Of a DNA stretch of 64,000 bases, positions 4,548 through 27,716 are shown one piece after another. The notes under the pieces were generated by a model. It saw nothing but the letters and a program-made list of their open reading frames with translations. It was not told the origin of the DNA and did not search any database. The translations under genes and the position numbers were made by a program. The number at the start of each line of letters is the position of its first letter. Positions within the stretch are counted from its first letter, which is position 1. The stretch lies in sequence record SRR33789315_82; one strand, written 5' to 3'.

Positions 4548-6164
4548 TTAAAGGGAGACTCCGCGCTTCCAGGGAATAAAATCATCTTGACCCAAATCAC
4601 TGGCACGGGTTTGCTTTCTGCCACTTGCTGTTTCAATGATTAATTGGATTAATTCTTCAGAAAGTTGTTCTAACGAAGCCCCTTCTGAAATTATCCTGCC
4701 TGCATCAAAATCTATAATATCATTCATATTTTTAGGAAGCATAGAATTTGATGAAATTTTAATTACTGGGCATATAGGATTTCCTGTTGGCGTTCCCAAA
4801 CCTGTGGAAAATAGAATTAAATTCGCACCCGAGGCCACTAAACCTGTGGTGGATTCTACATCATTACCAGGGGTACAAAGTAAGTTTAAGCCAGATTTGG
4901 TTGCGTACTCCGCATAATCCAGAACGTCTGATATTGCACCTCTGCCACCTTTGGTAGCTGCACCAGCCGATTTAATAGCGTCAGTAATAAGCCCATCTTT
5001 TATGTTCCCCGGTGATGGATTCATGTCAAAACCCGATCCTACTGCCTTTGCTCTGGAGTTATAGTCTTCCATTAAATTTATGAATCTCCCGGCAATCTCT
5101 TTTGATTCACACCTGTCAATCAAATCCTGCTCCACACCACATAATTCCGGAAACTCTGACAATATGCTTTTCCCCCCAAGTGTTCCTATTTTATCAGCTA
5201 CCAACCCTATGAGCGGATTTGCAGTAATTCCTGAAAATCCGTCTGACCCTCCACATTCCAAACCAATGCTTAATTTACTGAGGGAAGCAGGTTGCCTTAT
5301 AAGTTGGTTGGCTCTTTCTAGCTCTTGAAAAGTAGAACTAACAATTTGGGAAAGCATTTCCTTTTCTGAGTTAAATTGCTGCTGTTCAAAATACAATATT
5401 GGCTTGTCACATCTGTATTTATCAACCAGTGCTTCTTGAAGCATGCTCATTTGCGCATGCTGGCATCCCAAACTTAATACGGTTGCTCCAGCAACATTTG
5501 GGTTTTTTATGTATCCGGCCAATAAATTCACCAGAGCACGGGCGTCATCTCGTGTTCCTCCACAGCCACCTTCGTGGCTAAGAAACTTTATTCCGTCTAT
5601 ATTTTCGAAGGTTCTATGGAAGCTAGCTAAAGTTTCTTCTGTCAACTCAGTTTGAATCTCTCCTCTTATTAACCCCCTGATTTGTAGTTTATAAGGGTTT
5701 TCTTGTCTAAAACCTAGTTCAGTTTCAAAAGCTTCCTTTAGAACTTGAAGATTTCTGTTCTGACAAAACACCATTGGAATAAATAACCAATAGTTACCAC
5801 TACCTACTTGGCCGTCTGCCCGATAATAACCATCAAACATCTTATTTTTAAGATGAGAAATATTTGGAGCCTCATAGTCATATGTTTTACCCGTGTATTT
5901 ATAACTTGCAGCTGCATGTTTTACGTTATAGGTAGATATTAGTCCCCCTGATATTATTGGATGAACGACTTCTCCAACAGGAACTCCATACATAACAAGA
6001 GTATCTCCCTCCTTAAAGTTCTGTAAAGCCAATTTATGTTTTGCCGGTATCTTTTCTGTTATAAGAAACTCCTCTCCTCTAATTTTTAAGCGTTGTCCTT
6101 GCTCCAAATCTTTCAAGGATACAGCTATATTATCCTTTGGAGTAATTATAATTGTTTCTTTCAT
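4548..6164 (-). CDS. uxaA: UxaA/GarD-family sugar-acid dehydratase with N-terminal SAF domain
   Basis: DNIAVSL..HKLAL SAF domain, HEGGCGG, LECGGSDGFSG, NPSPGNIKDGL. Confidence 0.85.
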   Translation of the reverse strand: MKETIIITPKDNIAVSLKDLEQGQRLKIRGEEFLITEKIPAKHKLALQNFKEGDTLVMYGVPVGEVVHPIISGGLISTYNVKHAAASYKYTGKTYDYEAPNISHLKNKMFDGYYRADGQVGSGNYWLFIPMVFCQNRNLQVLKEAFETELGFRQENPYKLQIRGLIRGEIQTELTEETLASFHRTFENIDGIKFLSHEGGCGGTRDDARALVNLLAGYIKNPNVAGATVLSLGCQHAQMSMLQEALVDKYRCDKPILYFEQQQFNSEKEMLSQIVSSTFQELERANQLIRQPASLSKLSIGLECGGSDGFSGITANPLIGLVADKIGTLGGKSILSEFPELCGVEQDLIDRCESKEIAGRFINLMEDYNSRAKAVGSGFDMNPSPGNIKDGLITDAIKSAGAATKGGRGAISDVLDYAEYATKSGLNLLCTPGNDVESTTGLVASGANLILFSTGLGTPTGNPICPVIKISSNSMLPKNMNDIIDFDAGRIISEGASLEQLSEELIQLIIETASGRKQTRASDLGQDDFIPWKRGVSL

Positions 6165-6316
6165 TCGAACTTTTAAAGAATTAGCTTAATGTTAACAATT
6201 TACTTTTTTCTTCGTTCATTCAATAAGACAATATTTGCCTTTGTTTGAACAATAATTGCTTAACCTTAAGTCTCCTTTTCTATTAAAATTTAATTCAAAT
6301 TTTAATAGAAAAAATC

Positions 6317-7645
6317 CTAAATTCTTTCTATTGACTCATGAATTTTAAATGCTCTATATCCAAAAACGGCTATTACAATAAAGCATATAAGAGGTAGAAT
6401 GAAGGAGAAATTAACTTCTGGTACCCCAAAAATAAGAACGTCTTTATAACCACCACCACCTATATCTAGAATTTTGCCTTGAAAAACAGGCAGTATAGCT
6501 CCTCCGACAATGGCCATCACCAAAAAAGCCGCACCAAATTTTGCATCTTCCCCTAAACCTTCAAGAGCAATTCCATAAATGGTGGGAAACATTAAAGACA
6601 TGCTAAAAGAAACCAATACAAGACTATATAACCCAACTATGGTTTGAATGAATATTGCTCCTAAAACTAAAGTTATCCCGACTAATGAAAAGTTCAACAA
6701 TAGTTTTCCTGACTCCAGATATTTAAGAAGAAATGTACAAATCCATCTTCCCAATAAAAACAATCCCAAAGCAGCATAGGCATAATAAACAGTATTTTCA
6801 TTGCTTATTCCCAAAGCTTCAGCATATTGATAAATATATGTCCAACACATTATTTGTGCACCTACATAAAACATTTGCGCTATCACTCCTTCTACAAATT
6901 TTTTACTTTTCCATAGTCGTTTTAATGAGGATCCTAAATCCGACTCATTTTTGTTTTTACTCTTAGGCATTTTCACAAAAGCAATCATTATTAAAAGAAC
7001 AATAACCAATATCCCAAGAACCACGTAAGGATTTCGAATTATCATTAGGTCTTCAGAACGCACTTTCATTTTGGCAGATTGGGATAACTTGTAAAATATT
7101 AAATTCCCTTTTTCATCAATATCATCGGATTGCAAACTCTTCAAAATAAACTCTTTTGCTATAAATAATCCACCTAAAGCTCCTAATGGATTAAAAGCCT
7201 GTGCAAGGTTTAATCGCCTCGTTGCAGTTTCCTCTGATCCCATTGACATTATATATGGATTAGCCGTGGTTTCAAGAAAAGCCAATCCGAAAGTTAAAAT
7301 GTAGAGGGCTAAAAGGAAATAACTAAACTCTGCATAAGCTGCGGCAGGATAAAAAAGTAAAGCCCCTAGTCCATAAAGAGCTAAACCTACTAGAATTCCT
7401 TGCTTATAAGAGAACCTTCTTATGAATAGCGCTGCAGGCAAAGCCATTGTGAAGTATCCTCCGTAAAAAGCCATTTGAACAAGAGAGGCTTGGAAATTAT
7501 TTAATTCAAGCACTTTTTTGAAAGCTGAAACCATGGGATTAGTAATATCATTTGCGAAACCCCAAAGTGCAAACAAGAAGGTAATAAGTATGAAGGGAAC
7601 TAACATTTTTTTAGGCACTATGGGGTATGTATTTTTTCTGACCAT
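6317..7645 (-). CDS. fucP: L-fucose:H+ symporter (MFS)
   Basis: LFALWGFAND, LETTANPY, RRLNLAQAFNPLG, multiple hydrophobic segments. Confidence 0.9.
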   Translation of the reverse strand: MVRKNTYPIVPKKMLVPFILITFLFALWGFANDITNPMVSAFKKVLELNNFQASLVQMAFYGGYFTMALPAALFIRRFSYKQGILVGLALYGLGALLFYPAAAYAEFSYFLLALYILTFGLAFLETTANPYIMSMGSEETATRRLNLAQAFNPLGALGGLFIAKEFILKSLQSDDIDEKGNLIFYKLSQSAKMKVRSEDLMIIRNPYVVLGILVIVLLIMIAFVKMPKSKNKNESDLGSSLKRLWKSKKFVEGVIAQMFYVGAQIMCWTYIYQYAEALGISNENTVYYAYAALGLFLLGRWICTFLLKYLESGKLLLNFSLVGITLVLGAIFIQTIVGLYSLVLVSFSMSLMFPTIYGIALEGLGEDAKFGAAFLVMAIVGGAILPVFQGKILDIGGGGYKDVLIFGVPEVNFSFILPLICFIVIAVFGYRAFKIHESIERI

Positions 7646-7652
7646 AATAATT

Positions 7653-8444
7653 TTAATGATTTAGCAATGATCGATCTAAATGTACATAACCGCCGTCACA
7701 AAAAACAAACTGACCTGTTGTATGGGAAGATCTTTCTGAAATTAAAAAAAGAGCTGTGTCAGTAATTTCTTTGGGAGTAGTCATTCTTTTTCCAAGCGGA
7801 ATTTTTTCAAGGATTTTATTATATTTCTCTTCACCATCCTCCAAAGTATTAAGCCATTCTTTATAGGCAGGGGTAAGAGATTCACTTATAATTAATGCAT
7901 TAACTCGTACTTGATATTTCAGTAAATCAACGGCCCACTCCCTTGTTAGCGCGAGAACACCACCCTTAGACGCAGCGTAACCTGAGGTACCTCCTTGACC
8001 AGTAAGAGCTACTTTTGATCCAATATTGAGTATAACCCCCTTTGACTCTTTTAGCATTTTTACCGCATGTTTAGTAATCATGAAATAACTTATTAGGTTC
8101 AAGTGCAAGGAGGATAAAAAATCATCATAACTACCGTCTAAACCCACACCATCATTTACCCCTACGTTATTAATAAGAATATCTATTCTGCCAAAATGAT
8201 TGATGATTGTATTCATAGAGTCTTCTACCTGTTTAGGTTTAGTTATATCTGCTTTGACAAAAAAACATTCATTTCCATTCTGGCTAAGTTCTTCTGCATA
8301 GTCGAAACCTCTATTATTTCTATCTATAACAGCAGTTTTGGCACCTTCTTTGGAAAGTTCAAAAAGAATAGTTGCTCCAATGCTGCCTTTTTTGCCGGCG
8401 GCACCGGTTATAACCACAATTTTTCCTTTTAAATTTAAATCCAT
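7653..8444 (-). CDS. SDR oxidoreductase, L-fucose dehydrogenase-like
   Basis: NNVGVNDGVGL, SKVALTGQGGTSGYAASKG, LTREWA, DGGYVHLDR. Confidence 0.82.
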   Translation of the reverse strand: MDLNLKGKIVVITGAAGKKGSIGATILFELSKEGAKTAVIDRNNRGFDYAEELSQNGNECFFVKADITKPKQVEDSMNTIINHFGRIDILINNVGVNDGVGLDGSYDDFLSSLHLNLISYFMITKHAVKMLKESKGVILNIGSKVALTGQGGTSGYAASKGGVLALTREWAVDLLKYQVRVNALIISESLTPAYKEWLNTLEDGEEKYNKILEKIPLGKRMTTPKEITDTALFLISERSSHTTGQFVFCDGGYVHLDRSLLNH

Positions 8445-8699
8445 TTTATTTTATATTTTGTTCCAAAGATTACAGTTCATTCGATCCGATATTATTAATT
8501 CGACTCGGTAGACATTATAATTATTTGTGCAATTCCTCTAAAAGCAAATCAGTATACTGCTTATCTCATTTCAAGTTTCCATTACAAAAGAGTATAGAAA
8601 ATTCCTTGATCTAAATAGAAGTACATTTGAAAATATTGGGATTTCTTAATTTCATTATTTTAGATTCTAAGGAATCAATTATTTAGTTTAGCTCTTTTC

Positions 8700-9719
8700 T
8701 CAGAACAAATTAAAATTAATAATCGCTTTGATCATTCCAGGATCATTAGCGGTCCAGCTTTTAAATTTTTGAATCATTTGATTTGCTGTCACACGGTGTG
8801 TGATGTAAGAATCGGTTGGAAAACATCCTTTTCCTAAAAGTTCAATAATATTATTAAAGTCTTCAATTAAAGCATTTCGACTACATAGAAGAGTTATTTC
8901 TTTTGCATGTATTTCAGGATGATTGAAAATTATTTCTCCCTTTGAAAGTCCTACCAAAATAAATTTCCCTCCATGTGCCATATAATTTATTCCCGATTCT
9001 AGAGCTTTTTTATTGCCTGTGGCATCAAAAACATGATTTGCCAAATCACCTTTTGTAATATTTTCAATCTCCTTCTGTGCATTACTCCCAGCCTTTACAA
9101 TTTCATTAACGTTCATTTCGTTTTTCACATACATCAATCTTTTTTCGTTAATATCTATAGCAATGACTTTGGCTTTTTGTAACTGAGCAAGTTTAATAAT
9201 TCCGATACCAATAGGCCCGCACCCGATAACTACTACAGTATCACCCTCTTTCACATTTGCTCTGTTGATTGCGTGGGCTCCTATGGCCAAAGGTTCCACA
9301 ATAGCCATTTCTTCATCGGACAAATGTGGTGTAGACAACAAAACACCTTCAGGAAGAACTACTTTTTCCTGCATTCCTCCGTCTATATGAACTCCAAAAA
9401 CCTTTATTTTTTGGCAACAATTGGGTTTACCATTCATACAGGCTATACAATTGCCACAATTGAGATACGGCATGATCACTACCTTATCTTTAGTTTTAAA
9501 TTTACTTTCATCATCTGCCTCCAATACTTCAGCAGCTAATTCATGGCCAAGGATTCTTGGATATTTGAAAAATGGCTGGTCACCCGAATAAGCATGAAAA
9601 TCTGTTCCACAAATACCAACCTTGTTGATTTTTAATAGGACTTCTCCTCTTTTTCTAAACGGAACCTCTTTTACTTTCATTAATAATGTTCCTGGATTTT
9701 CGCAAACGATGTATTTCAT
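8700..9719 (-). CDS. Zinc-binding dehydrogenase, L-galactonate 5-dehydrogenase-like
   Basis: GICGTDFHAY, GHE, CGNCIAC..NCC structural zinc site, GCGPIG, HAKEITLLCSRNA. Confidence 0.8.
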   Translation of the reverse strand: MKYIVCENPGTLLMKVKEVPFRKRGEVLLKINKVGICGTDFHAYSGDQPFFKYPRILGHELAAEVLEADDESKFKTKDKVVIMPYLNCGNCIACMNGKPNCCQKIKVFGVHIDGGMQEKVVLPEGVLLSTPHLSDEEMAIVEPLAIGAHAINRANVKEGDTVVVIGCGPIGIGIIKLAQLQKAKVIAIDINEKRLMYVKNEMNVNEIVKAGSNAQKEIENITKGDLANHVFDATGNKKALESGINYMAHGGKFILVGLSKGEIIFNHPEIHAKEITLLCSRNALIEDFNNIIELLGKGCFPTDSYITHRVTANQMIQKFKSWTANDPGMIKAIINFNLF

Positions 9720-20049: not shown

Positions 20050-20417
20050 AATTATAATTTTAAGAATATAGCATAAAACAAAGGATTAAATTACTATTAT
20101 ACAAATTTTGTTATTAATATTTTCCTCTTCATAATTAAATGTTGACAATCCTAAAAACAATAATTACAATGGCAATTTTTTCTAAAAAAATGAAACCTAA
20201 CTATTACTACTACTATATTATTGCTTCAATTAACAAATATCCTACCATTCCTTTTCTTTTAAAAACTTCACTTTGTTTAAACCCGATTTCTATTTATCTT
20301 TATCTAGATTACAAATCAAACTAAACTATTGAGCATCAATTAATGTGGTAGTTAAACAGCCACTTCAATTATTTGACATCCTGAAATCCTTATAACCACT
20401 AAAATAAGTGAGTGAGG

Positions 20418-20440
20418 TTTGAATCCTTCCGAGGTCACAA
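20418..20440 (+). repeat. Left att core, 23 bp TTTGAATCCTTCCGAGGTCACAA (tRNA 3'-end fragment)
   Basis: Identical to 26885-26907; reads as T-loop TTTGAAT, T-stem CCTTC, acceptor strand CGAGGTC + A. Confidence 0.9.
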
Positions 20441-21726
20441 CACCCCTAAAGTCTGATGATAATGAGAGAGTTACAAAAGTAATTCTTAATTATTGCCAGA
20501 CTTTTTTTAATTGTCGCCAATACAATCTAATAGCGCCAAACATTTTGAAACACTTTTTTGATTATAAAGAAGCAAAATTAGTAAAAGGAACTACTAAAGG
20601 AGACCCTAAATATTATGTTGAATTTTCTGCATTTGATGCGGTACTTGGAAGATTGAGGCGTAAAAGAATCTACACTATTAACAGTATTAAAAACCTAGAA
20701 CAGCGGGAAATTGCTGGAGAAAGACTCGTAACTGAAATAAACGAATTACTTAAAAATGGTTATCATTTTAACGATGTAAAGAAAAAAGAGATTGATAGTA
20801 AATTACTAGAAATCAAAACGGCAAAATATTACACGCTAGAAAGCGGTTTAAATTATGCCTTAAAAATAAAGAAAGCTGAAATTGCTGTAAAAAGTTATGC
20901 CAACTATAAACACTCCAAGAATTATATATTAAAATTTGCTGACTATCAAAGCTTAAGACATAGTAATATAAAAAATATCCCGAATGAGTTCCCTTATTTA
21001 TTTTTAGATTATTTGAGAGATATACAAAAGTTGCAAGGTCAAACCATCAACGCTATTATTAGCCAATGCAAAGGATTATACAGATTATTATCAGAAAGGG
21101 AAATAGTAGGGGAAAATATTTTTAAAAAAATACGGAAGCAAAAAGAAATTGTCACATCACAAAACCAAGCCTATAGCCCAGAACAAATTGAGAAAATTAA
21201 AAATAGGCTTATTGATCGGGACCCGCTTTTGTGGGATTTTTGTCAGTTTATATTTTACTCATTTATGAGACCTAATGAGATAAGACAAATTACAAAATCA
21301 AATATTGACTTAAAAAAAAATATAATATACCTCTCTGCTGAAAAATCGAAAACTAAAAGAGAGCGTTACATACATATTAATAAAGCTTTTAAAAAAGTGA
21401 TTGAAAATATGGAGATTGACAATTTAAAAACTGAGTTTTTATTATTCAATATAAATAATGAAACACGTACAAAACCAATAGGAACCAACACGTTTATGAC
21501 TAGATATAGAAAACATCTAGATATTTTAGAAATTCCAAAAAATTACACTCTTTACTCGTGGAAGCATACAGGCAATGTAACAGCTTATAAAAACGGTGTA
21601 GATATATACAGCCTTATGAAACAAAACGGTCATACATCCATTGATACGACTATGAAGTATTTAAAATCATTAGGCCTGGTAATGGATCAGGAGTTACTAC
21701 TAAAATTTGATAGTCTTAAAATCTAA
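20419..21726 (+). CDS. Tyrosine integrase (start uncertain: TTG 20419 inside att core, or TTG 20545)
   Basis: FMRPNEI (R), KSKTK (K), YSWKH in place of HxxR, NGHTS (H), TMKY (Y); adjacent to att. Confidence 0.9.
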   Translation: MNPSEVTTPLKSDDNERVTKVILNYCQTFFNCRQYNLIAPNILKHFFDYKEAKLVKGTTKGDPKYYVEFSAFDAVLGRLRRKRIYTINSIKNLEQREIAGERLVTEINELLKNGYHFNDVKKKEIDSKLLEIKTAKYYTLESGLNYALKIKKAEIAVKSYANYKHSKNYILKFADYQSLRHSNIKNIPNEFPYLFLDYLRDIQKLQGQTINAIISQCKGLYRLLSEREIVGENIFKKIRKQKEIVTSQNQAYSPEQIEKIKNRLIDRDPLLWDFCQFIFYSFMRPNEIRQITKSNIDLKKNIIYLSAEKSKTKRERYIHINKAFKKVIENMEIDNLKTEFLLFNINNETRTKPIGTNTFMTRYRKHLDILEIPKNYTLYSWKHTGNVTAYKNGVDIYSLMKQNGHTSIDTTMKYLKSLGLVMDQELLLKFDSLKI

Positions 21727-22220
21727 GGTGTGTAAACCTGTGAATATATATAGGCTTGTGTACTTGCTATTTTCGACTGACCGAAATACGTTTTAATTTG
21801 ACCATCTGTATAACCATTAGCACTTAATTCTTTCGCTTTAATATGCCTAAATAAATGCGTTAGTACTGGTTTATTTTTTACCATCAGGTTAGGCTCTGGA
21901 GAGAAACGCTTGAACCAGATTAAAGAGTTACTATAACTAATCATATTTGAGAAATCATAATTATTTTGAATACTATTTAATAAATAAGCATCGATATCAA
22001 TATTAAAAAAAGTTCTAAGATTATTACCTTTTTGCGGCATTAATGAAATCCTTTCACTGTCAACCACTGACCACCTACTGTAATCATATACATCCCCAAA
22101 TCTAGCACCAGTTAAAAACATTGTGTTAAAATAAGCATACATATAAGGGTCAAAATCCCGAAAGTTATCCAAGATTGTAACGGCAATTATCTGAAGTTCT
22201 TGCAATGTAAACACCTTCAT
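21723..22220 (-). CDS. Small (165 aa) tyrosine recombinase, catalytic domain only
   Basis: LTGARFGD (R), PQKG (K), HLFRH (HxxR), FGQS, STQAY (Y); ATG 22220 preferred because the 22262 extension overlaps a terminator. Confidence 0.75.
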   Translation of the reverse strand: MKVFTLQELQIIAVTILDNFRDFDPYMYAYFNTMFLTGARFGDVYDYSRWSVVDSERISLMPQKGNNLRTFFNIDIDAYLLNSIQNNYDFSNMISYSNSLIWFKRFSPEPNLMVKNKPVLTHLFRHIKAKELSANGYTDGQIKTYFGQSKIASTQAYIYSQVYTP

Positions 22221-22231
22221 ATTATAGGTAT

Positions 22232-22260
22232 AAAAAAAGAGAGCCATTATTATGGCTCTC
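22232..22260 (-). terminator. Intrinsic terminator after DUF6266-like gene
   Basis: 9-bp stem GAGAGCCAT/ATGGCTCTC (22239-22260) followed by T7 on the minus strand. Confidence 0.8.
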
Positions 22261-22284
22261 AATTGATTAATTAGTAGCTAAATA

Positions 22285-22926
22285 TTAAGCTAAGACAGCA
22301 GAACCAATATATAAGCTATCTGAAACTTTAGCACCTGTGTTGGAAACGTGATACGCATAGAAATGACAGGTATCCCCCGCAACTCCTGCCGGTAGTGCTA
22401 CGTTTTGATCAAAACCATCACCCGCTGGAGCGGTATAAGAAACAGTATTTGACGGGATTGCCTCATTGATGCCAATTACCTTAATCTTATCAGTATCAAA
22501 TAACGAAACACCGTCAACAACTGACGCGATATCTACCGTTGCAGTATCGTTGCCGTTATCAGTAAAATCAGTTAATACCACCTTTTTCAAAGTTCCTTTA
22601 GCTATCTGAAGAGACGGCCAGATTATACTAGTCACGTTTCCTACTAATAATACTGCATTACGTAGATTGATCGAGGTAAAAACATTGTAAGCAGAGTGTA
22701 AGGCCTGACGTTCAGGAAAAGAAGTTTTTAAGATACTAGACAGAGAACGAAAAAGCCCAATAATCAACGAGAACGAACCTCTCTGATTCAATTGTGCCTG
22801 TGTCTGTGGATCATTAACATAGGCTGGTTTTTTACGCACTATGTTTTGCCCACCGCTACGGTATGCCACGTCATCGCCTATGCTTTTACGCATAGTACCG
22901 AAAGTAGAATTTTTAAAGATTGCCAT
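22285..22926 (-). CDS. DUF6266-like protein (basic N-terminus, beta-rich C-terminus)
   Basis: N-terminus FGTMRKSIGDDVAYRSGGQNIVRKKP..NDPQTQAQLNQRGSF matches the recalled 'G..SGKVG..V.Y..G...R.KP...P.T..Q..QR..F' pattern; IAKGTL and VSDSLYIG also fit. Confidence 0.65.
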   Translation of the reverse strand: MAIFKNSTFGTMRKSIGDDVAYRSGGQNIVRKKPAYVNDPQTQAQLNQRGSFSLIIGLFRSLSSILKTSFPERQALHSAYNVFTSINLRNAVLLVGNVTSIIWPSLQIAKGTLKKVVLTDFTDNGNDTATVDIASVVDGVSLFDTDKIKVIGINEAIPSNTVSYTAPAGDGFDQNVALPAGVAGDTCHFYAYHVSNTGAKVSDSLYIGSAVLA

Positions 22927-23023
22927 AAGAAGAGAATTATTAAAATTAATATAAAATGATTACTTGATAATACAAAATTGAGTTTGTCGCAAACGAACAA
23001 AGAACGAGTAAGAAACGACTTAC

Positions 23024-23251
23024 TTAAATATCTAATTGTTGACTTTTTTTTGACTTCCCAAAAAGCTTACCTAAGAAATTTGTTAAAATAGTCGAGACTA
23101 AACCACCAAGTACCGCAACAATTGAAGCGATTAAAGTATCAGGCGTTGAAGGATCCACGCTCGGCACAATGTCACTTGCTACCCCGCCATAAACGACACC
23201 AGAACCAACAGCACCAGAAATAAAATTAGTTAAAGGAATTTTTGAAGACAT
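23024..23251 (-). CDS. Small membrane protein (75 aa), coat-protein- or holin-like architecture
   Basis: ATG 23251 downstream of a promoter; Gly-rich hydrophobic leader, acidic Pro-rich linker, TM helix LIASIVAVLGGLVSTILTNFL, basic tail GKLFGKSKK. Confidence 0.6.
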   Translation of the reverse strand: MSSKIPLTNFISGAVGSGVVYGGVASDIVPSVDPSTPDTLIASIVAVLGGLVSTILTNFLGKLFGKSKKSQQLDI

Positions 23252-23287
23252 AATAAAAAAATTTAAAGTTTGTAACAAAATTTGATA

Positions 23288-23295
23288 CAAATGTA
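23288..23295 (-). promoter_or_regulatory. Bacteroidota -7 promoter element TACATTTG for the membrane protein/DUF6266 operon
   Basis: Matches TAnnTTTG, 37 bp upstream of ATG 23251. Confidence 0.6.
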
Positions 23296-23539
23296 ATAAA
23301 ATATCTGACATAGTGTCACATTACATTAAAAAAAACTGACAAAATGAACTTTTATAAAACCAAAAATTTTTTAATTGTGCATTGTTACAGAAGGAGAGAA
23401 TTTGAGCAGCTCCGCAAGCCAAACTGTAGAAAAATCCGAAACCTACTAATCCAGTAACTTTAATACTGACAAATACCTAACGGTGCCTAAATGAATGACG
23501 TTGTAATGATGCACTTTGAAAAAGGCTTGACGAGTGGGG

Positions 23540-23833
23540 CAGCTCTGGGGTGGCGCGTGTTATTGCTCTGCAATAACCGTGACACAACGGCAAAGAGCTG
23601 GCGCAGGTGAGCGAAGCACTCACCGAGCATTAAAATTAACAGGTAAGCGCGGGTTAGGCGCGCGCACTCCTTATAAACCCCGCGATAAGGAAAGTACAGT
23701 TTATCAATATCAATTAATATTTGGTTTTATGAAAGTAAAATTTAAGCGTAACGAGGAAAGGGCAATTGCAAAGGGGGCGAGACCGAGGCAACGAGGTCTG
23801 GCACCGAGCGCGGGCGCAAAGTGTCAAGACAGG
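23540..23833. other. GC-rich hairpin cluster, candidate rolling-circle origin (sso/dso) or packaging signal
   Basis: Inverted repeats 23540-46/23594-600, 23559-77, 23577-90, 23606-24, 23780-99; at and beyond the 3' end of rep. Confidence 0.55.
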
Positions 23834-25052
23834 GCTTTAGACTTGGATTGACTATTTGCGATTGAAGGCTTTCTAAATGATTATCAAATTCTTTTTTTAA
23901 TATTGGTGTCTTATTTAGATCAAATACTAGGGTTACGACTTGCTGTTTACCTATTTGATTAACTATGACTTTTTCAGTTATTGCCTGAATGATATCAAAT
24001 TCGACCAACGCACTTTCATTACCAATATCTGTGTAGTTTTTCATTCTGGAAAGGTTTGAAGAGCAAGACCAAATACGCCCTTTTACACCCTGCTCTCGCA
24101 GCTTTACTAATTCATCATCTATACGTTGTAACTCTTTATTTATTACTATTATATTCTTTTCTTTAACCACAAAACTAGAAGAATGTGAGGTGAGATTTTG
24201 ATCAATTTTACTATTTTCTACTTTAGCTAATTGCAGTAATTGCCTATCTTTTAATAATTCTTTTATAGTATTAGTTCTTATTGTCTTAGTAACAGTTTTA
24301 GAAATATACTTCGAGATGTAAGCCCCAAGATGTTTGACTTTATACAGTGCGTGTACATCGGTTGAATTTGGGTTAGACCAGCCACAAGATTTAGCTACCT
24401 TATACGCTTTAAATTGTTGATCTTTAGTCCTTTTATCTTCTTTATTGATTGACATACGAAAACCATTTTTGAAAAATTCTTTTTGATTATCTGAATACCT
24501 ATCGACATAGCCCAGCTTATTTATTATACGATTCCAATTTGTGCGTATTATTTGCCATTTTAAATACTGATTAAAAAGTATGTGAAAATGAATGTTGCCG
24601 TTGTCTTGCTTTTCCGCTTTCCAGATATACATACAATTAGGCTTTAATTTTCGTAGCTCAACTAAAAATTGATTGAGACATTTTTTTTTTATTACATTAT
24701 CTGTATGTATCTGTTTACTCGGGAGCGTTAATGTGATGAATGTAAGCTTATACTTTATTGATTTATTATACTTTTTACCTTTCGATATTTCTATCGTACT
24801 ATCGATAGACTTGCCTAATTGCTCTCTTCCTTTTAGAGTTTTATTATTAGTAACATATAACATTAAATTTATCTTTTTCCTTAACCGAGCTTGTGCATTG
24901 TGTGATAGATCACCGTAGTAATTCGTATTATCCTTAAGATTTTGCAAAGAACTTTCAGAAATATTTTTACTATAACCAAATTCTGGACGAGAAAAAAAAG
25001 TGACACCATAGGGAGCCACAGAATAATGAGGGATTAGGTCAAAATTAGTCAT
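23742..25052 (-). CDS. HUH rolling-circle replication initiator (Rep)
   Basis: Motif I LTFITLTLP, motif II WKAEKQDNGNIHFHIL, motif III GAYISKYISK (two Tyr). Confidence 0.88.
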   Translation of the reverse strand: MTNFDLIPHYSVAPYGVTFFSRPEFGYSKNISESSLQNLKDNTNYYGDLSHNAQARLRKKINLMLYVTNNKTLKGREQLGKSIDSTIEISKGKKYNKSIKYKLTFITLTLPSKQIHTDNVIKKKCLNQFLVELRKLKPNCMYIWKAEKQDNGNIHFHILFNQYLKWQIIRTNWNRIINKLGYVDRYSDNQKEFFKNGFRMSINKEDKRTKDQQFKAYKVAKSCGWSNPNSTDVHALYKVKHLGAYISKYISKTVTKTIRTNTIKELLKDRQLLQLAKVENSKIDQNLTSHSSSFVVKEKNIIVINKELQRIDDELVKLREQGVKGRIWSCSSNLSRMKNYTDIGNESALVEFDIIQAITEKVIVNQIGKQQVVTLVFDLNKTPILKKEFDNHLESLQSQIVNPSLKPCLDTLRPRSVPDLVASVSPPLQLPFPRYA

Positions 25053-25113
25053 ACTCTAAAATTTGACTTGTGGACGTTAAGATAAACCAATAGAAAACCG
25101 AGAAACTAAAATC

Positions 25114-25491
25114 TTACTTATACCACCAGATGACATCTAACGGCTTATCGTAATCAATATCACAATGGATATAATTAGAAGCTATACCAACACGACGGAA
25201 GCCCACAACAAGAAGAGAACGGATAATCCTAAAGCGACTAGACGAATTAATAATCTTAATATCAACCGCCAACCCTTTTAAATGCGAACTATCATCTACG
25301 CCACCAATAGCCTTATTATGTGATATAGTGCGGACACCGCTATTAATAATGAACGGTACTTGTGCTATACCTCTCGCCATATCGAGCATTGAAACCAAGC
25401 TAGGAGAAATTGAAAGACCAGAATATTCTAAATCAGGGCTATCGAATTCACGAGAGTTAAAGTATGGTGTTAGCTGCCTATGATCCGACAT
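25114..25491 (-). CDS. Peptidase M15 (Zn D-Ala-D-Ala/endolysin-like)
   Basis: YFNSREF, SGVRTISHNKAIGG, SSHLKGLAVDI, YIHCDI zinc ligands; ATG 25491. Confidence 0.88.
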   Translation of the reverse strand: MSDHRQLTPYFNSREFDSPDLEYSGLSISPSLVSMLDMARGIAQVPFIINSGVRTISHNKAIGGVDDSSHLKGLAVDIKIINSSSRFRIIRSLLVVGFRRVGIASNYIHCDIDYDKPLDVIWWYK

Positions 25492-25801
25492 AATGCTTAA
25501 CATTTAATAATGATTGTTTATTGGTATAAGGCTTTAAGTCGATGTTGATAGAAATCCGCTCAATCTCTTCATCTTTAGCGGTTATTCTGTCAATTTCTTT
25601 TTGTAGTTGAGACCATAAGCCATTATTCGCCAAAAAATCAATCTCGGCATCAATAGCGCGTAACTTATTAATGATAGCCTGTTTTCTCTTAACAATAAAT
25701 TGTAAAGGATTTGACGTTTTTTGATAGGTCAGTAAATCGTTTTGAAGTTCCAGAACAATAGCCTTTACCGACGATTTTGGATTTATTACTTGATCGGACA
25801 T
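25478..25801 (-). CDS. Hypothetical helical protein (107 aa)
   Basis: ATG start, tightly coupled to both neighbours; no recognised motif. Confidence 0.65.
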   Translation of the reverse strand: MSDQVINPKSSVKAIVLELQNDLLTYQKTSNPLQFIVKRKQAIINKLRAIDAEIDFLANNGLWSQLQKEIDRITAKDEEIERISINIDLKPYTNKQSLLNVKHYVGS

Positions 25802-25811
25802 AATAAAAAAT

Positions 25812-26168
25812 TTATTGGGTTAAACCTGAGATTTGGACGGCATTAATAACCGTTGTACTAGATAATTTTGAATTGTTTTTTTTACGATAGTGAACAGAAA
25901 GCAAGTCTAATAAAGGACAAGAAAAGACTAAGGATAGACGATAAGCCACACTAAAAGGAATATCTACCGCGCTATTAATATGGGCATTACAATAATTAGA
26001 AAATGTTTGACGTGAAACACCTAGAAACACGGGTAATTCTTTTTTAAACGCTCTAGCCTCTTTAGCTGGCATTTGGTCTAATAGTTCTACTATGCGAAAT
26101 TTTCTTAGGGCATAATCCCCTGAATTAAGGGTTAAAACACCTTTTTTATTTGTTACTTTTGTTAGCAT
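25812..26168 (-). CDS. XRE-type HTH protein, Cro-like
   Basis: LGVSRQTFSNYCN..DIPFSVAYRLSLVFSCPLLDL HTH pattern; first gene of the rep operon. Confidence 0.7.
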   Translation of the reverse strand: MLTKVTNKKGVLTLNSGDYALRKFRIVELLDQMPAKEARAFKKELPVFLGVSRQTFSNYCNAHINSAVDIPFSVAYRLSLVFSCPLLDLLSVHYRKKNNSKLSSTTVINAVQISGLTQ

Positions 26169-26267
26169 ATTTGTAAGGAATTGTAACAGTTATGTAATTA
26201 ATATTAACACAAATGTAATATAAAACAATACTATTATCCTAATAAAATGTATTAAAAAATAACACTT
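26169..26267. promoter_or_regulatory. Divergent switch region with -7 element TACATTTG (minus strand, 26217-26210) and repeated TGTAA boxes
   Basis: TTGTAAG, TTGTAAC, ATGTAAT x2 and ATGTATT within 90 bp between divergent HTH genes. Confidence 0.55.
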
Positions 26268-26270
26268 TTG

Positions 26271-26678
26271 ATGAAAAAAAATTATAAGTACCTGAAAGAC
26301 AATTCAATACACGTAGGAAATAATATTAACGAAATATTACAAAACCTAGGTGTAAGCAAAGTCGATTTCGCAAAGTTGATAGGCAAAACGAGGGAACACA
26401 CCTATAAAATAATAGCTAATAGCAACGTGAATACTGAAATATTACAAATACTACACAACGAGTACGATATACCTTACTCTATATTTTTTAGTACAGAAAA
26501 ACAGATTAACATCAAAATAAAGGGAGATAGCAACGAAATAAAACAATTGGGAATCACAACCGATAACAAAAAATTGATTGATGATAATGAGCTGAAAGCC
26601 CTAAAAAAGGAAATTGAATTATTACAAGAAATAGTAAAAACCAAAGACGATTTAATAAATGTACTCAAATCGAAATAA
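26271..26678 (+). CDS. XRE-type HTH repressor, CI-like, with C-terminal coiled coil and no S24 domain
   Basis: INEILQNLGVSKVDFAKLIGKTREHTYKII HTH; LKKEIELLQEIVKTKDDLINVLK coiled coil. Confidence 0.78.
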   Translation: MKKNYKYLKDNSIHVGNNINEILQNLGVSKVDFAKLIGKTREHTYKIIANSNVNTEILQILHNEYDIPYSIFFSTEKQINIKIKGDSNEIKQLGITTDNKKLIDDNELKALKKEIELLQEIVKTKDDLINVLKSK

Positions 26679-26884
26679 TAAGAAGTATAAACCGAGATAC
26701 GGTAATGATGCCTATGTATATAAGGTATGGGAAAGCGTGAAATTGGGTGCAATTGCATTGCTCATAATAAAAGCTATTAAGCTGATTATGAATTTATTGC
26801 CATAGTCGCCAAGCTGCGACCATAGACACTATTATCTAACTAATTGATTATCAATGTATTTAATTATAAATATATGTGTAAAAT

Positions 26885-26907
26885 TTTGAATCCTTCCGAG
26901 GTCACAA
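26885..26907 (+). repeat. Right att core, 23 bp
   Basis: Identical to 20418-20440. Confidence 0.9.
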
Positions 26908-26909
26908 AT

Positions 26910-26940
26910 AAAAAGCAAGCTTAATAAGCTTGCTTTTTTT
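26910..26940. terminator. Bidirectional intrinsic terminator directly after right att
   Basis: AAAAAGCAAGCTT-AAT-AAGCTTGCTTTTTTT. Confidence 0.88.
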
Positions 26941-26960
26941 ATTTATAAATTTGATATCAC

Positions 26961-27716
26961 TTACATACTTCGTACTTCAAACACTATAGGCATTGAGTAT
27001 GAAACTCGTACTGGCTTACCTCTTTGTTTACCTGGTATCATCTTTGGCAGTTTTTCGATAACCCGCTTAGCTTCTTTTTCAAGAACAGGATGTGGTCCTC
27101 TGGACATTACTTCTACAATATTACCCTTTTCATCAATCCTAAATTGTACATAAATCTTTTGAATCCCGCTGAGTCCTAATTGCCCCCCTAAAGTATTATC
27201 AAATTCTTTAGTTACAAATCGTTTGATTTTATCTGACATACAATCTTTTCGCGCAGCAGAACCCTTTTCATTTTCACATCCAGGATATACAGGTGTATCT
27301 TCTATTAAAGCAAAAGGAACATCCTCTATTACTTCTTCTTCAGCAAATTGAACATCTTCAACTGGAACATATTGCTCATCTGTAGAAATACCCTCGTCCA
27401 AACTGGTTTCTGTAGACTCAATTAAGCTTTCTTCTATATCGATATCGTTCTCGATTACTTCTAAAGATTCAAAAGCTTGAGGAGGAGCTGGTGGAGGTGG
27501 TGGAGGTGGTGGTGTCATTTCAACCTCTGTAATAGGCATATCATCTTCTAATTCATAATTTAAATTCAATGCTTGCTGATTTCCAGCACCATCATGAGCA
27601 TAGGTTTTAGTTTCTAATAAAAAATAAGTGATTGACATAGAAACGATTAATCCTATTTGAAACAGAATCAAACTATATTGATTCAGATCGACTTTACTAT
27701 ATTTTTTAACTTCCAT
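26961..27716 (-). CDS. tonB: Energy transducer TonB
   Basis: N-terminal TM, poly-Pro linker, P.YPGC and PGKQRGKPVRVSYSMPI C-terminal domain. Confidence 0.9.
   Translation of the reverse strand: MEVKKYSKVDLNQYSLILFQIGLIVSMSITYFLLETKTYAHDGAGNQQALNLNYELEDDMPITEVEMTPPPPPPPPAPPQAFESLEVIENDIDIEESLIESTETSLDEGISTDEQYVPVEDVQFAEEEVIEDVPFALIEDTPVYPGCENEKGSAARKDCMSDKIKRFVTKEFDNTLGGQLGLSGIQKIYVQFRIDEKGNIVEVMSRGPHPVLEKEAKRVIEKLPKMIPGKQRGKPVRVSYSMPIVFEVRSM

Follow-up and report, generated by a model that had tools for sequence, protein, structure and literature searches.

Conserved DUF6266 gene pair as candidate particle module of a small integrated rolling-circle element in Bacteroidota

Finnlakeviruses have double jelly-roll capsids, and M15-type peptidases occur in some microvirus genomes. 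In the accessible part of the literature, the temperate Microviridae-type proviruses of Bacteroidetes are rolling-circle replicons of about 4-8 kb in Bacteroidota chromosomes (Krupovic and Forterre 2011, PMC3091885), and the Finnlakeviridae (FLiP, PhiCjT23) and 'Obscuriviridae' (Cellulophaga phage Omtje, phi48:2) combine a replication initiator (Rep) with a cell-wall hydrolase in genomes of 6.5-9 kb (PMC8776804, PMC9719478). We describe here a 6,467-bp element comparable to these in size, replication type and host group, which lies in a stretch of 64,000 nucleotides (nt) from sequence record SRR33789315_82 (the window, to which coordinates without a locus label refer). The focus of this analysis is a pair of minus-strand genes within the element, coding respectively for a single-pass membrane protein of 75 amino acids (aa; 23024-23251), which is either holin-like or coat-like, and for a 213-aa protein of the DUF6266 family (22285-22926), a candidate particle protein; an initial annotation of the window had put both forward as a separately promoted module of candidate virion genes. 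We tentatively propose, with somewhat less than even confidence, that the pair is the late 'particle and exit' operon of a temperate, phage-like element of Bacteroidota which replicates as a rolling circle and packages single-stranded DNA (ssDNA).

The transcription signals ascribed to this pair in the initial annotation were recovered. A promoter-like box reading TACATTTG, which fits TAnnTTTG, is present on the minus strand at 23295-23288, 37 nt before the ATG at 23251, and the DUF6266 gene is followed by a hairpin terminator (22260-22239, minus strand) with a 9-bp stem containing 5 GC pairs, a 4-nt loop and the run TTTTTTT. This terminator is the best of 8 terminator-like sites in 20300-27000 (3.1 +/- 2.0 expected). 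As TAnnTTTG is not enriched in the window (81 matches versus 91 +/- 9.6 in shuffles), the promoter reading follows not from the frequency of the motif but from the position of the box and its repetition before the upstream operon, where a second TACATTTG box occurs on the minus strand at 26210-26217, 42 nt before the ATG of a 118-aa gene; both boxes sit inside a 31-nt repeat, the copies of which are 77% alike. The order small transmembrane (TM) protein, DUF6266, mini-recombinase is furthermore kept in four other loci (L001-L004, the last of which ends inside DUF6266), each with a homologue of the 75-aa protein (67-74 aa) upstream of DUF6266. The small membrane protein and the DUF6266 protein are thus encoded by a separately signalled, conserved gene pair. 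A 73-aa open reading frame (ORF) rich in Lys, Ala and Glu is found between the small TM gene and DUF6266 in L001 (713-934) and L004 (504-725); the window is without it, and the gap there between the 75-aa gene and DUF6266 measures 97 nt.

The element surrounding the pair is bounded by a perfect 23-nt direct repeat with a spacing of 6467, comprising an attL-like left copy at 20418-20440 and a perfectly matching attR-like right copy, found by repeat search, at 26885-26907 (both plus strand). A tyrosine integrase, coded by a 435-aa ORF (20419-21726, plus strand; PF00589 E 3e-16, phrog_1 integrase E 1.8e-37), begins at the left repeat, its true start probably lying further inside the ORF. These flanking repeats and the adjoining integrase are the hallmarks of an integrated element of the temperate type, to which we assign this one on its sequence features. 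From left to right the element encodes the integrase, the mini-recombinase, DUF6266, the 75-aa protein, a G+C-rich spacer, Rep, an M15_3 peptidase, a 107-aa protein, the 118-aa protein and a divergent helix-turn-helix (HTH) regulator. Eight of these nine genes are found again, identically ordered, in Flavobacterium sasangense, the exception being the large integrase. They occupy two small contigs, both whole, one of 2,203 nt made up entirely by the module and one of 4,480 nt on which the HTH regulator is followed, as in the window, by the genes for the 118-aa protein, the 107-aa protein, M15 and Rep. The identities to the window proteins are 46% for Rep and 47% for DUF6266. The ends of the two contigs do not overlap, and the F. 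sasangense element may exist as a free circle. A near-syntenic copy is thereby available in a culturable type strain, DSM 21067. Among the longest contigs carrying the 33 close homologues of the DUF6266 protein, 13 measure 5.1-8.5 kb, 18 fall below 5 kb and 2 exceed 90 kb; the 13 are near the element's own size, which we count in favour of a phage-like element.

Profile searches confirmed the family assignment of the 213-aa protein (PF19781, E 1.2e-15; score 58 bits, cut-off 23.4; match to profile positions 6-198 of 198), and its nearest clusters in the ESM Atlas are all DUF6266 (score 0.97). It belongs to a subfamily that diverges from the Pfam core, whose members score 278-374 bits as against 58 bits, and its 33 homologues, with 36-50% identity, are all about 212 aa long. 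Residues 1-35 are nearly invariant, whereas the C-terminal half is variable. In a comparison of five loci, variation is only synonymous at 23 of the first 38 codons, 5 codons are identical and 10 change the residue; the predominance of purely synonymous variation means that the constraint acts on the protein. The same 35 residues contain 7 K/R versus 2 D/E (isoelectric point, pI, 10.55), and the N-terminal half as a whole is basic (13 K/R versus 4 D/E), as opposed to an acidic C-terminal half (5 versus 12), with a pI of 4.25 for residues 111-213. An AlphaFold model of the full protein (predicted local distance difference test, pLDDT, 82; predicted template modelling score, pTM, 0.75) displays a beta-meander at 12-32, three helices at 43-90 and a seven-strand sandwich at 112-213. 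The basic N-terminal arm and beta-rich body described in the initial annotation are both borne out.

The C-terminal sandwich aligns with FN3 domains in VIA (Z 8.0, root mean square deviation 2.4-2.5 over 92-98 residues), a Z score which for an FN3/immunoglobulin (Ig) sandwich falls within that tool's stated common background. The N-terminal 110 residues, modelled alone with a pLDDT of 81.8, gave no fold match above Z 4.5. Only one viral protein recurs in the fold searches, an uncharacterised 288-aa product of 'virus sp. ctQiC1' (E 1e-4 for the full model and 2.4e-2 for the N-terminal one), and a sequence search of the PDB with the DUF6266 profile returned nothing at E <= 10. The predicted fold is non-enzymatic, which spares the virion-protein suggestion the objection that the protein might be an unrelated enzyme. 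The modelled structure fits an inner part facing nucleic acid or a partner and an exposed, variable outer part, without identifying a capsid protein. The full-text literature searches with 'DUF6266' and 'PF19781' found no paper, and the accessible portions of PMC7000223 and PMC8530359 mention nothing resembling the DUF6266 protein.

For the 75-aa protein, the initial annotation had described the layout of a filamentous-phage coat protein, of which the TM helix and the Lys-rich tail stand and the leader is doubtful. The TM segment occupies about residues 38-60 (19-residue Kyte-Doolittle maximum 2.13), the tail (62-75) has 4 basic residues, all Lys, and 1 acidic one, the linker (28-39) has 2 acidic and 0 basic residues, and the Gly-rich N-terminal segment is weakly hydrophobic (maximum 1.28). 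An alternative 95-aa reading starts at 23311; the alignments with homologues begin no earlier than residue 4 of the 75-aa form. The protein matches no Pfam family, only one PHROG at E 0.0091 and no coat or holin family, and a homologous-protein search with it gave none at E <= 0.01. If it were a pVIII-like major coat protein, the element would form a filamentous or rod-shaped virion with DUF6266 as the minor receptor-binding protein at its end. The acidic stretch, single TM helix and four tail lysines would suit such a role, as would the conserved N-terminus and variable Ig-like C-terminus of DUF6266; moreover, the Rep belongs to the ORF2/G2P family common to inoviruses and plectroviruses, and its nearest phage-database matches are three 'Inoviridae sp.' records. 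Against this, none of the nine ORFs of the element encodes the Zot/pI-type assembly ATPase that inoviruses need (Pfam, PHROGs), the putative leader is weak, coat families are not matched in either database, no small TM ORF occurs among the listed plus-strand ATG ORFs of the 4.2-kb and 8-kb relatives described below, and an endolysin-type peptidase is unexpected in a phage that extrudes without lysis. We consider a filamentous virion with the 75-aa protein as coat very improbable. The 75-aa sequence appears to fit a holin at least as well as a coat protein, with the small size, TM segment and charged C-terminal tail expected of one; its gene lies 1.9 kb from that of the M15 peptidase and in a different operon.

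The Rep (Rep436; 23742-25052, minus strand) is a rolling-circle initiator matching PF23343 REP_ORF2-G2P (E 4.7e-12, 46.5 bits against a cut-off of 27.8) and phrog_3419 (E 2.2e-12). It is of the HUH type without a helicase domain, and the motifs HFHIL and YISKYISK in its translation are those which, from general knowledge of HUH enzymes, we take to be the HUH and catalytic Tyr motifs. DUF6266-superfamily genes were found beside a rolling-circle Rep in four further replicons, two of them also carrying a cell-wall hydrolase (M15, CHAP) and two deposited as viral. The smallest, HG796319.1 ('plasmid pRGI00433', circular, 4,190 nt), encodes a Rep of another family (phrog_20614) spanning the record start, an M15_3 peptidase and a protein of 329 aa, in which residues 1-96 match DUF6266 (hhalign 96%, E 2.6e-9; own hidden Markov model, HMM, E 1.8e-15), and has an 850-nt G+C-rich stretch. 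Besides the DUF6266-like gene its annotation lists only the M15 peptidase, the wrap-around Rep ORF and one 125-aa coding sequence in the G+C-rich stretch, and with so few other genes it contains no other candidate for a particle protein. OP209177.1 ('Bacteriophage N55_L8635_C17.5, complete genome', 8,038 nt) combines a PF23343 Rep, a CHAP hydrolase and a PAPS-reductase with three DUF6266 paralogues (own HMM E 1.8e-19, 5.2e-8 and 5.1e-5; Pfam E 6e-5 for ORF2), between which lies a coiled-coil ORF. At the chromosomal locus L070, a PF23343-type Rep and a stretch reaching 70% G+C are followed by three tandem paralogues of 227-232 aa, the first of which is recognised by our N-terminal HMM at E 1.3e-7. 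MW202486.1 ('Inoviridae sp.', a circle of 4,577 nt) has the Rep that comes closest among phage-database entries (30% identity), together with a 276-aa ORF that shares the N-terminal motif and matches weakly (own N-terminal HMM E 0.0042, hhalign E 0.03). As a group, the small-replicon proteins align with the broad DUF6266 profile by hhalign at 98.8% (E 5.4e-17, 184 columns), a group profile that includes two members matching DUF6266 singly; our own HMM searches gave no match on reversed sequences. Full-text searches with 'OP209177' and 'pRGI00433' found no paper.

The size and diversity of the family speak for a particle function. A profile search of 1.84 billion representatives at 50% identity yielded 12,558 DUF6266 matches at E <= 1e-3, and 8 of the best 150 representatives are fused doubles of 426-454 aa with two DUF6266 stretches (P0041, P0042, P0044, P0045, P0056, P0063, P0068, P0076). 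Several other observations weigh against it. Of the 401 genomes of the class that were sampled, 19 contain PF19781, and from these we examined 25 chromosomal DUF6266 loci with 8-kb flanks, scanning 227 ORFs against Pfam. At none of the 25 does a PF23343 Rep lie within about 3.5 kb, and tblastn detected no homologue of Rep436, M15 or the 75-aa protein within 8 kb of them; 'capsid' therefore cannot be the whole story for the DUF6266 family. Many of these chromosomal genes are solitary in variable or defence-type islands, or are paired with DUF6943, a pairing seen in 6 loci, of which 3 lie beside ArsR-MerT-type metal genes. Conversely, a Rep436 search of the same 401 genomes retrieved 7, including F. 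sasangense and L070, and 5 of the 7 Rep436-homologue loci lack a DUF6266-like ORF within 8 kb. The Rep linkage of DUF6266 homologues divides: it holds for the nearest relatives and the small replicons and fails at the 25 chromosomal loci.

The Rep-less chromosomal copies would favour a reading in which DUF6266 is a cargo or effector, acting outside the cell in a bacteriocin-, adhesin- or signalling-like manner after release by a holin-endolysin lysis or secretion module, with the Rep elements as mere carriers. A 250-aa protein occurs in 4 of the loci, and in 3 of these (L038, L040, L057) DUF6266 is accompanied, without Rep or integrase, by DUF5675 and two small TM proteins; the accessible part of a preprint (bioRxiv 10.64898/2026.04.11.717860) ascribes to DUF5675 a structure resembling that of C82 peptidases and names it as a candidate lysin. 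The variable, acidic Ig-like C-terminal domain would also suit a secreted effector. This reading nevertheless leaves the strongly basic, nearly invariant N-terminal half unexplained, linkage to two unrelated Rep families in 4-8-kb replicons is unexpected for a cargo gene, and neither Pfam nor the structural model gives DUF6266 a signal peptide or toxin-like domain; we judge it distinctly unlikely. The 250-aa neighbour proteins (set C) look like DUF6266 paralogues by eye and were rejected as such, since hhalign gave 3.6% probability and our own HMMs miss them; they also had no match in phage records. The locus L054 stands apart among the 25 in having an integrase, a mini-recombinase and two tandem DUF6266 genes (6252-9332); it is without Rep, adjoins a caspase / EAD11 / AAA defence-like cluster, and may be a decayed or minimal relative of the window element. 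In L034, L036 and L037 (about 5500-8600), which come from three genomes, DUF6943-DUF6266 pairs adjoin ArsR-MerT-HMA metal-resistance genes, as if on a shared mobile island.

The further adverse points come from structure and from viral databases. The fold search, which the initial annotation had suggested running against capsid and nucleocapsid proteins, turned up FN3/Ig-type sandwiches, and no capsid or nucleocapsid is among the matches listed by Foldseek (PDB and BFVD) and wide VIA searches; an absence from these lists does not exclude the eight-stranded jelly-roll of single jelly-roll capsid proteins (CRESS-DNA viruses, Microviridae). A near-invariant N-terminus joined to a variable C-terminus is also a signature of receptor-binding and adaptor proteins, and since 60 copies of a 23-kDa subunit cannot enclose 6.5 kb, a larger or different architecture has to be assumed. 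The window DUF6266 had no tblastn match in 50,697 phage records, pattern scans of IMG/VR with the DUF6266 protein, its alignment and Rep, which detect close relatives only, found no relative, and no DUF6266 match was obtained on a 28-kb Spirosoma plasmid that carries a Rep homologue. The occurrence of Rep436 relatives on that plasmid and on an Azobacteroides plasmid, the deposition of HG796319.1 as a plasmid, and the absences just listed of capsid-like folds, of IMG/VR relatives and of Rep and lysis genes near most chromosomal copies could alternatively be accommodated if the element were an integrative rolling-circle plasmid or mobilisable element forming no particle. DUF6266 would then be a non-structural accessory, such as a DNA-binding, partition-like, cell-surface or exclusion factor, the 75-aa protein a membrane accessory, and the M15 peptidase a means of opening the wall for DNA transfer. 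What speaks against such a plasmid is the company of a peptidoglycan hydrolase with Rep and a DUF6266-like gene in the window, F. sasangense and two of the four further replicons (M15, M15, M15 and CHAP), the lack of any relaxase, coupling protein, partition or Mob gene in a Pfam scan of the element, the devotion of a quarter of the 4.2-kb circle to the DUF6266-like protein, and the deposition of one relative as a phage genome and another as Inoviridae sp. We regard the plasmid explanation as somewhat unlikely. The virion role suggested in the initial annotation is partly supported: the conserved unit, the non-enzymatic fold and the Rep linkage in small replicons speak for it, the fold searches and the 25 chromosomal loci do not, and it seems to us possible without being probable.

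Based on these observations we favour the phage-like reading and suggest that, following excision, Rep would generate single-stranded circles around which DUF6266 would assemble. The conserved basic N-terminal half (pI about 10.5) would be directed toward the DNA and neighbouring subunits, and the variable acidic Ig-like domain (pI about 4.3) toward the outside. With its single TM helix and Lys-rich tail, the 75-aa protein would act at the membrane, most likely as a holin-type partner giving the M15 peptidase access to the wall. Elements with a single DUF6266 gene might construct a shell from one subunit type, and those with three paralogues or fused doubles a pseudo-symmetric one. The production of ssDNA, the assembly, the orientation of the two halves and the role in lysis are all inferred. 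In a bolder form of this proposal, Bacteroidota would harbour a large, undescribed lineage of small ssDNA phages and phage-derived elements with DUF6266 as capsid protein, its fold, unseen in known capsids, joining a basic N-terminal domain without known fold to an Ig-like outer domain. Shells would in that case consist of a single subunit type, of three paralogues (pseudo-T=3-like) or of fused doubles, and the Rep-less copies that occur in their thousands on chromosomes, next to lysis genes, would represent particle-making modules that have been domesticated or have become defective; this we think unlikely. For the particle protein of these small phage-like elements, which form an undescribed group, DUF6266 is all the same the best, if still unproven, candidate.

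Among the remaining genes of the element, the mini-recombinase (21723-22262, minus strand; PF00589 E 0.0011, phrog_1 E 2.4e-5), which likely starts at the ATG at 22220, consists of the catalytic domain only. Its homologues lie directly downstream of DUF6266 in L001, L002, L003 and L054 and align from residue 15, those of L002 and L054 also matching PF00589. Throughout this subfamily, the gene after DUF6266 codes for such a catalytic-domain-only recombinase, about 166-174 aa long (L001 1661-2161, L002 2520-3020, L054 7408-7923). The recombinase is present in F. sasangense without the large integrase; it may be the element's own resolvase or integrase. The endolysin-type M15_3 peptidase (25114-25503, minus strand; PF08291 E 3.1e-15, phrog_894 endolysin E 2.3e-21) is preceded in its operon by the 107-aa protein (25478-25801, minus strand) and, as first gene of the rep operon, the 118-aa protein (25812-26168, minus strand). 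Neither of these two belongs to a Pfam or PHROG family, and both have homologues in F. sasangense (C46), that of the 107-aa protein in the equivalent position at E 2e-12. The divergent HTH regulator (136 aa, 26268-26678, plus strand; phrog_2439 transcriptional regulator E 7.7e-7, HTH_3 E 0.0045) likewise has a homologue there (E 9e-9). By eye, a 227-aa ORF with a cytosine-methyltransferase-like FPC motif follows Rep in F. sasangense (L069 3153-3836), and an annotated DNA methyltransferase precedes Rep in an 'Inoviridae sp.' relative (L060 1854-2510); the window element has none. Beyond the right 23-nt repeat there is a strong plus-strand terminator with a 13-bp stem (26910-26938). Insertion may have been directed at the 3' end of a small gene or RNA to the left of 20440 that is not annotated; a tRNA scan of the window and Rfam gave no match at the insertion site, and an Rfam search covering the element and four of its relatives gave none at E <= 0.1.

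Between rep and the module lies a non-coding stretch of 430 nt (23312-23741) with a GC fraction of 0.40-0.42 versus about 0.30 in its flanks, in which short hairpins are visible and which could be an origin or an RNA. A structured RNA finds no support here: folding is no better than in shuffles (z -0.16 and -0.96) and Rfam has no match. The final ~35 residues of the Rep ORF (23742-23850, minus strand) enter this G+C-rich stretch. The F. sasangense Rep (415 aa) lacks an equivalent of them, and in function the true C-terminus of Rep may lie earlier. In three elements the DUF6266-type gene or genes come after a non-coding block rich in G+C, namely the window (23312-23850, GC about 0.42), L058 (1200-2050, up to 0.64) and L070 (9050-9850, up to 0.70), and blastn among the G+C-rich stretches of four elements showed no meaningful similarity.

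DUF6266 is a very large family with no assigned function, and the window shows it in one of its most complete settings, a 6.5-kb replicon bounded by repeats and carrying genes for integration, replication and wall lysis. Should DUF6266 form particles, ssDNA phages would gain a new structural lineage, in a phylum that is major both in the environment and in the gut, and many orphan genes would be explained; should it not, it would still mark a widespread class of small mobile elements. Compared with the Microviridae-type proviruses, the element is without a microvirus major capsid protein and matches no Pfam capsid family, its largest ORF besides Rep and the integrase is the 213-aa one, and its Rep is of the ORF2/G2P family. 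With the Inoviridae and Plectroviridae it shares the PF23343 Rep family, a broadly coat-like layout of the 75-aa protein, whose leader is doubtful, and an integrated, temperate-like state, but it has an endolysin-type peptidase and is without a Zot/pI ATPase or a recognisable coat or adsorption family. Its gene content also differs from that of the obscuriviruses, for which the accessible part of PMC8776804 gives eight structural protein clusters and a glucosaminidase, and the lack of a tblastn match for the window DUF6266 in phage records sets it apart from finnlakeviruses and obscuriviruses alike. Rolling-circle plasmids and integrative mobilisable elements resemble it in the helicase-less HUH Rep, the small size, the tyrosine recombinase and the plasmid-borne Rep relatives; to these the element, without visible Mob or partition genes, adds an endolysin-type peptidase and a conserved, predicted non-enzymatic 213-aa protein. 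That protein agrees with PF19781 in its full-length match above the cut-off, its typical length and its occurrence in Bacteroidota, and is distinguished from the core of the family as a divergent subfamily with a nearly invariant 35-residue N-terminus.

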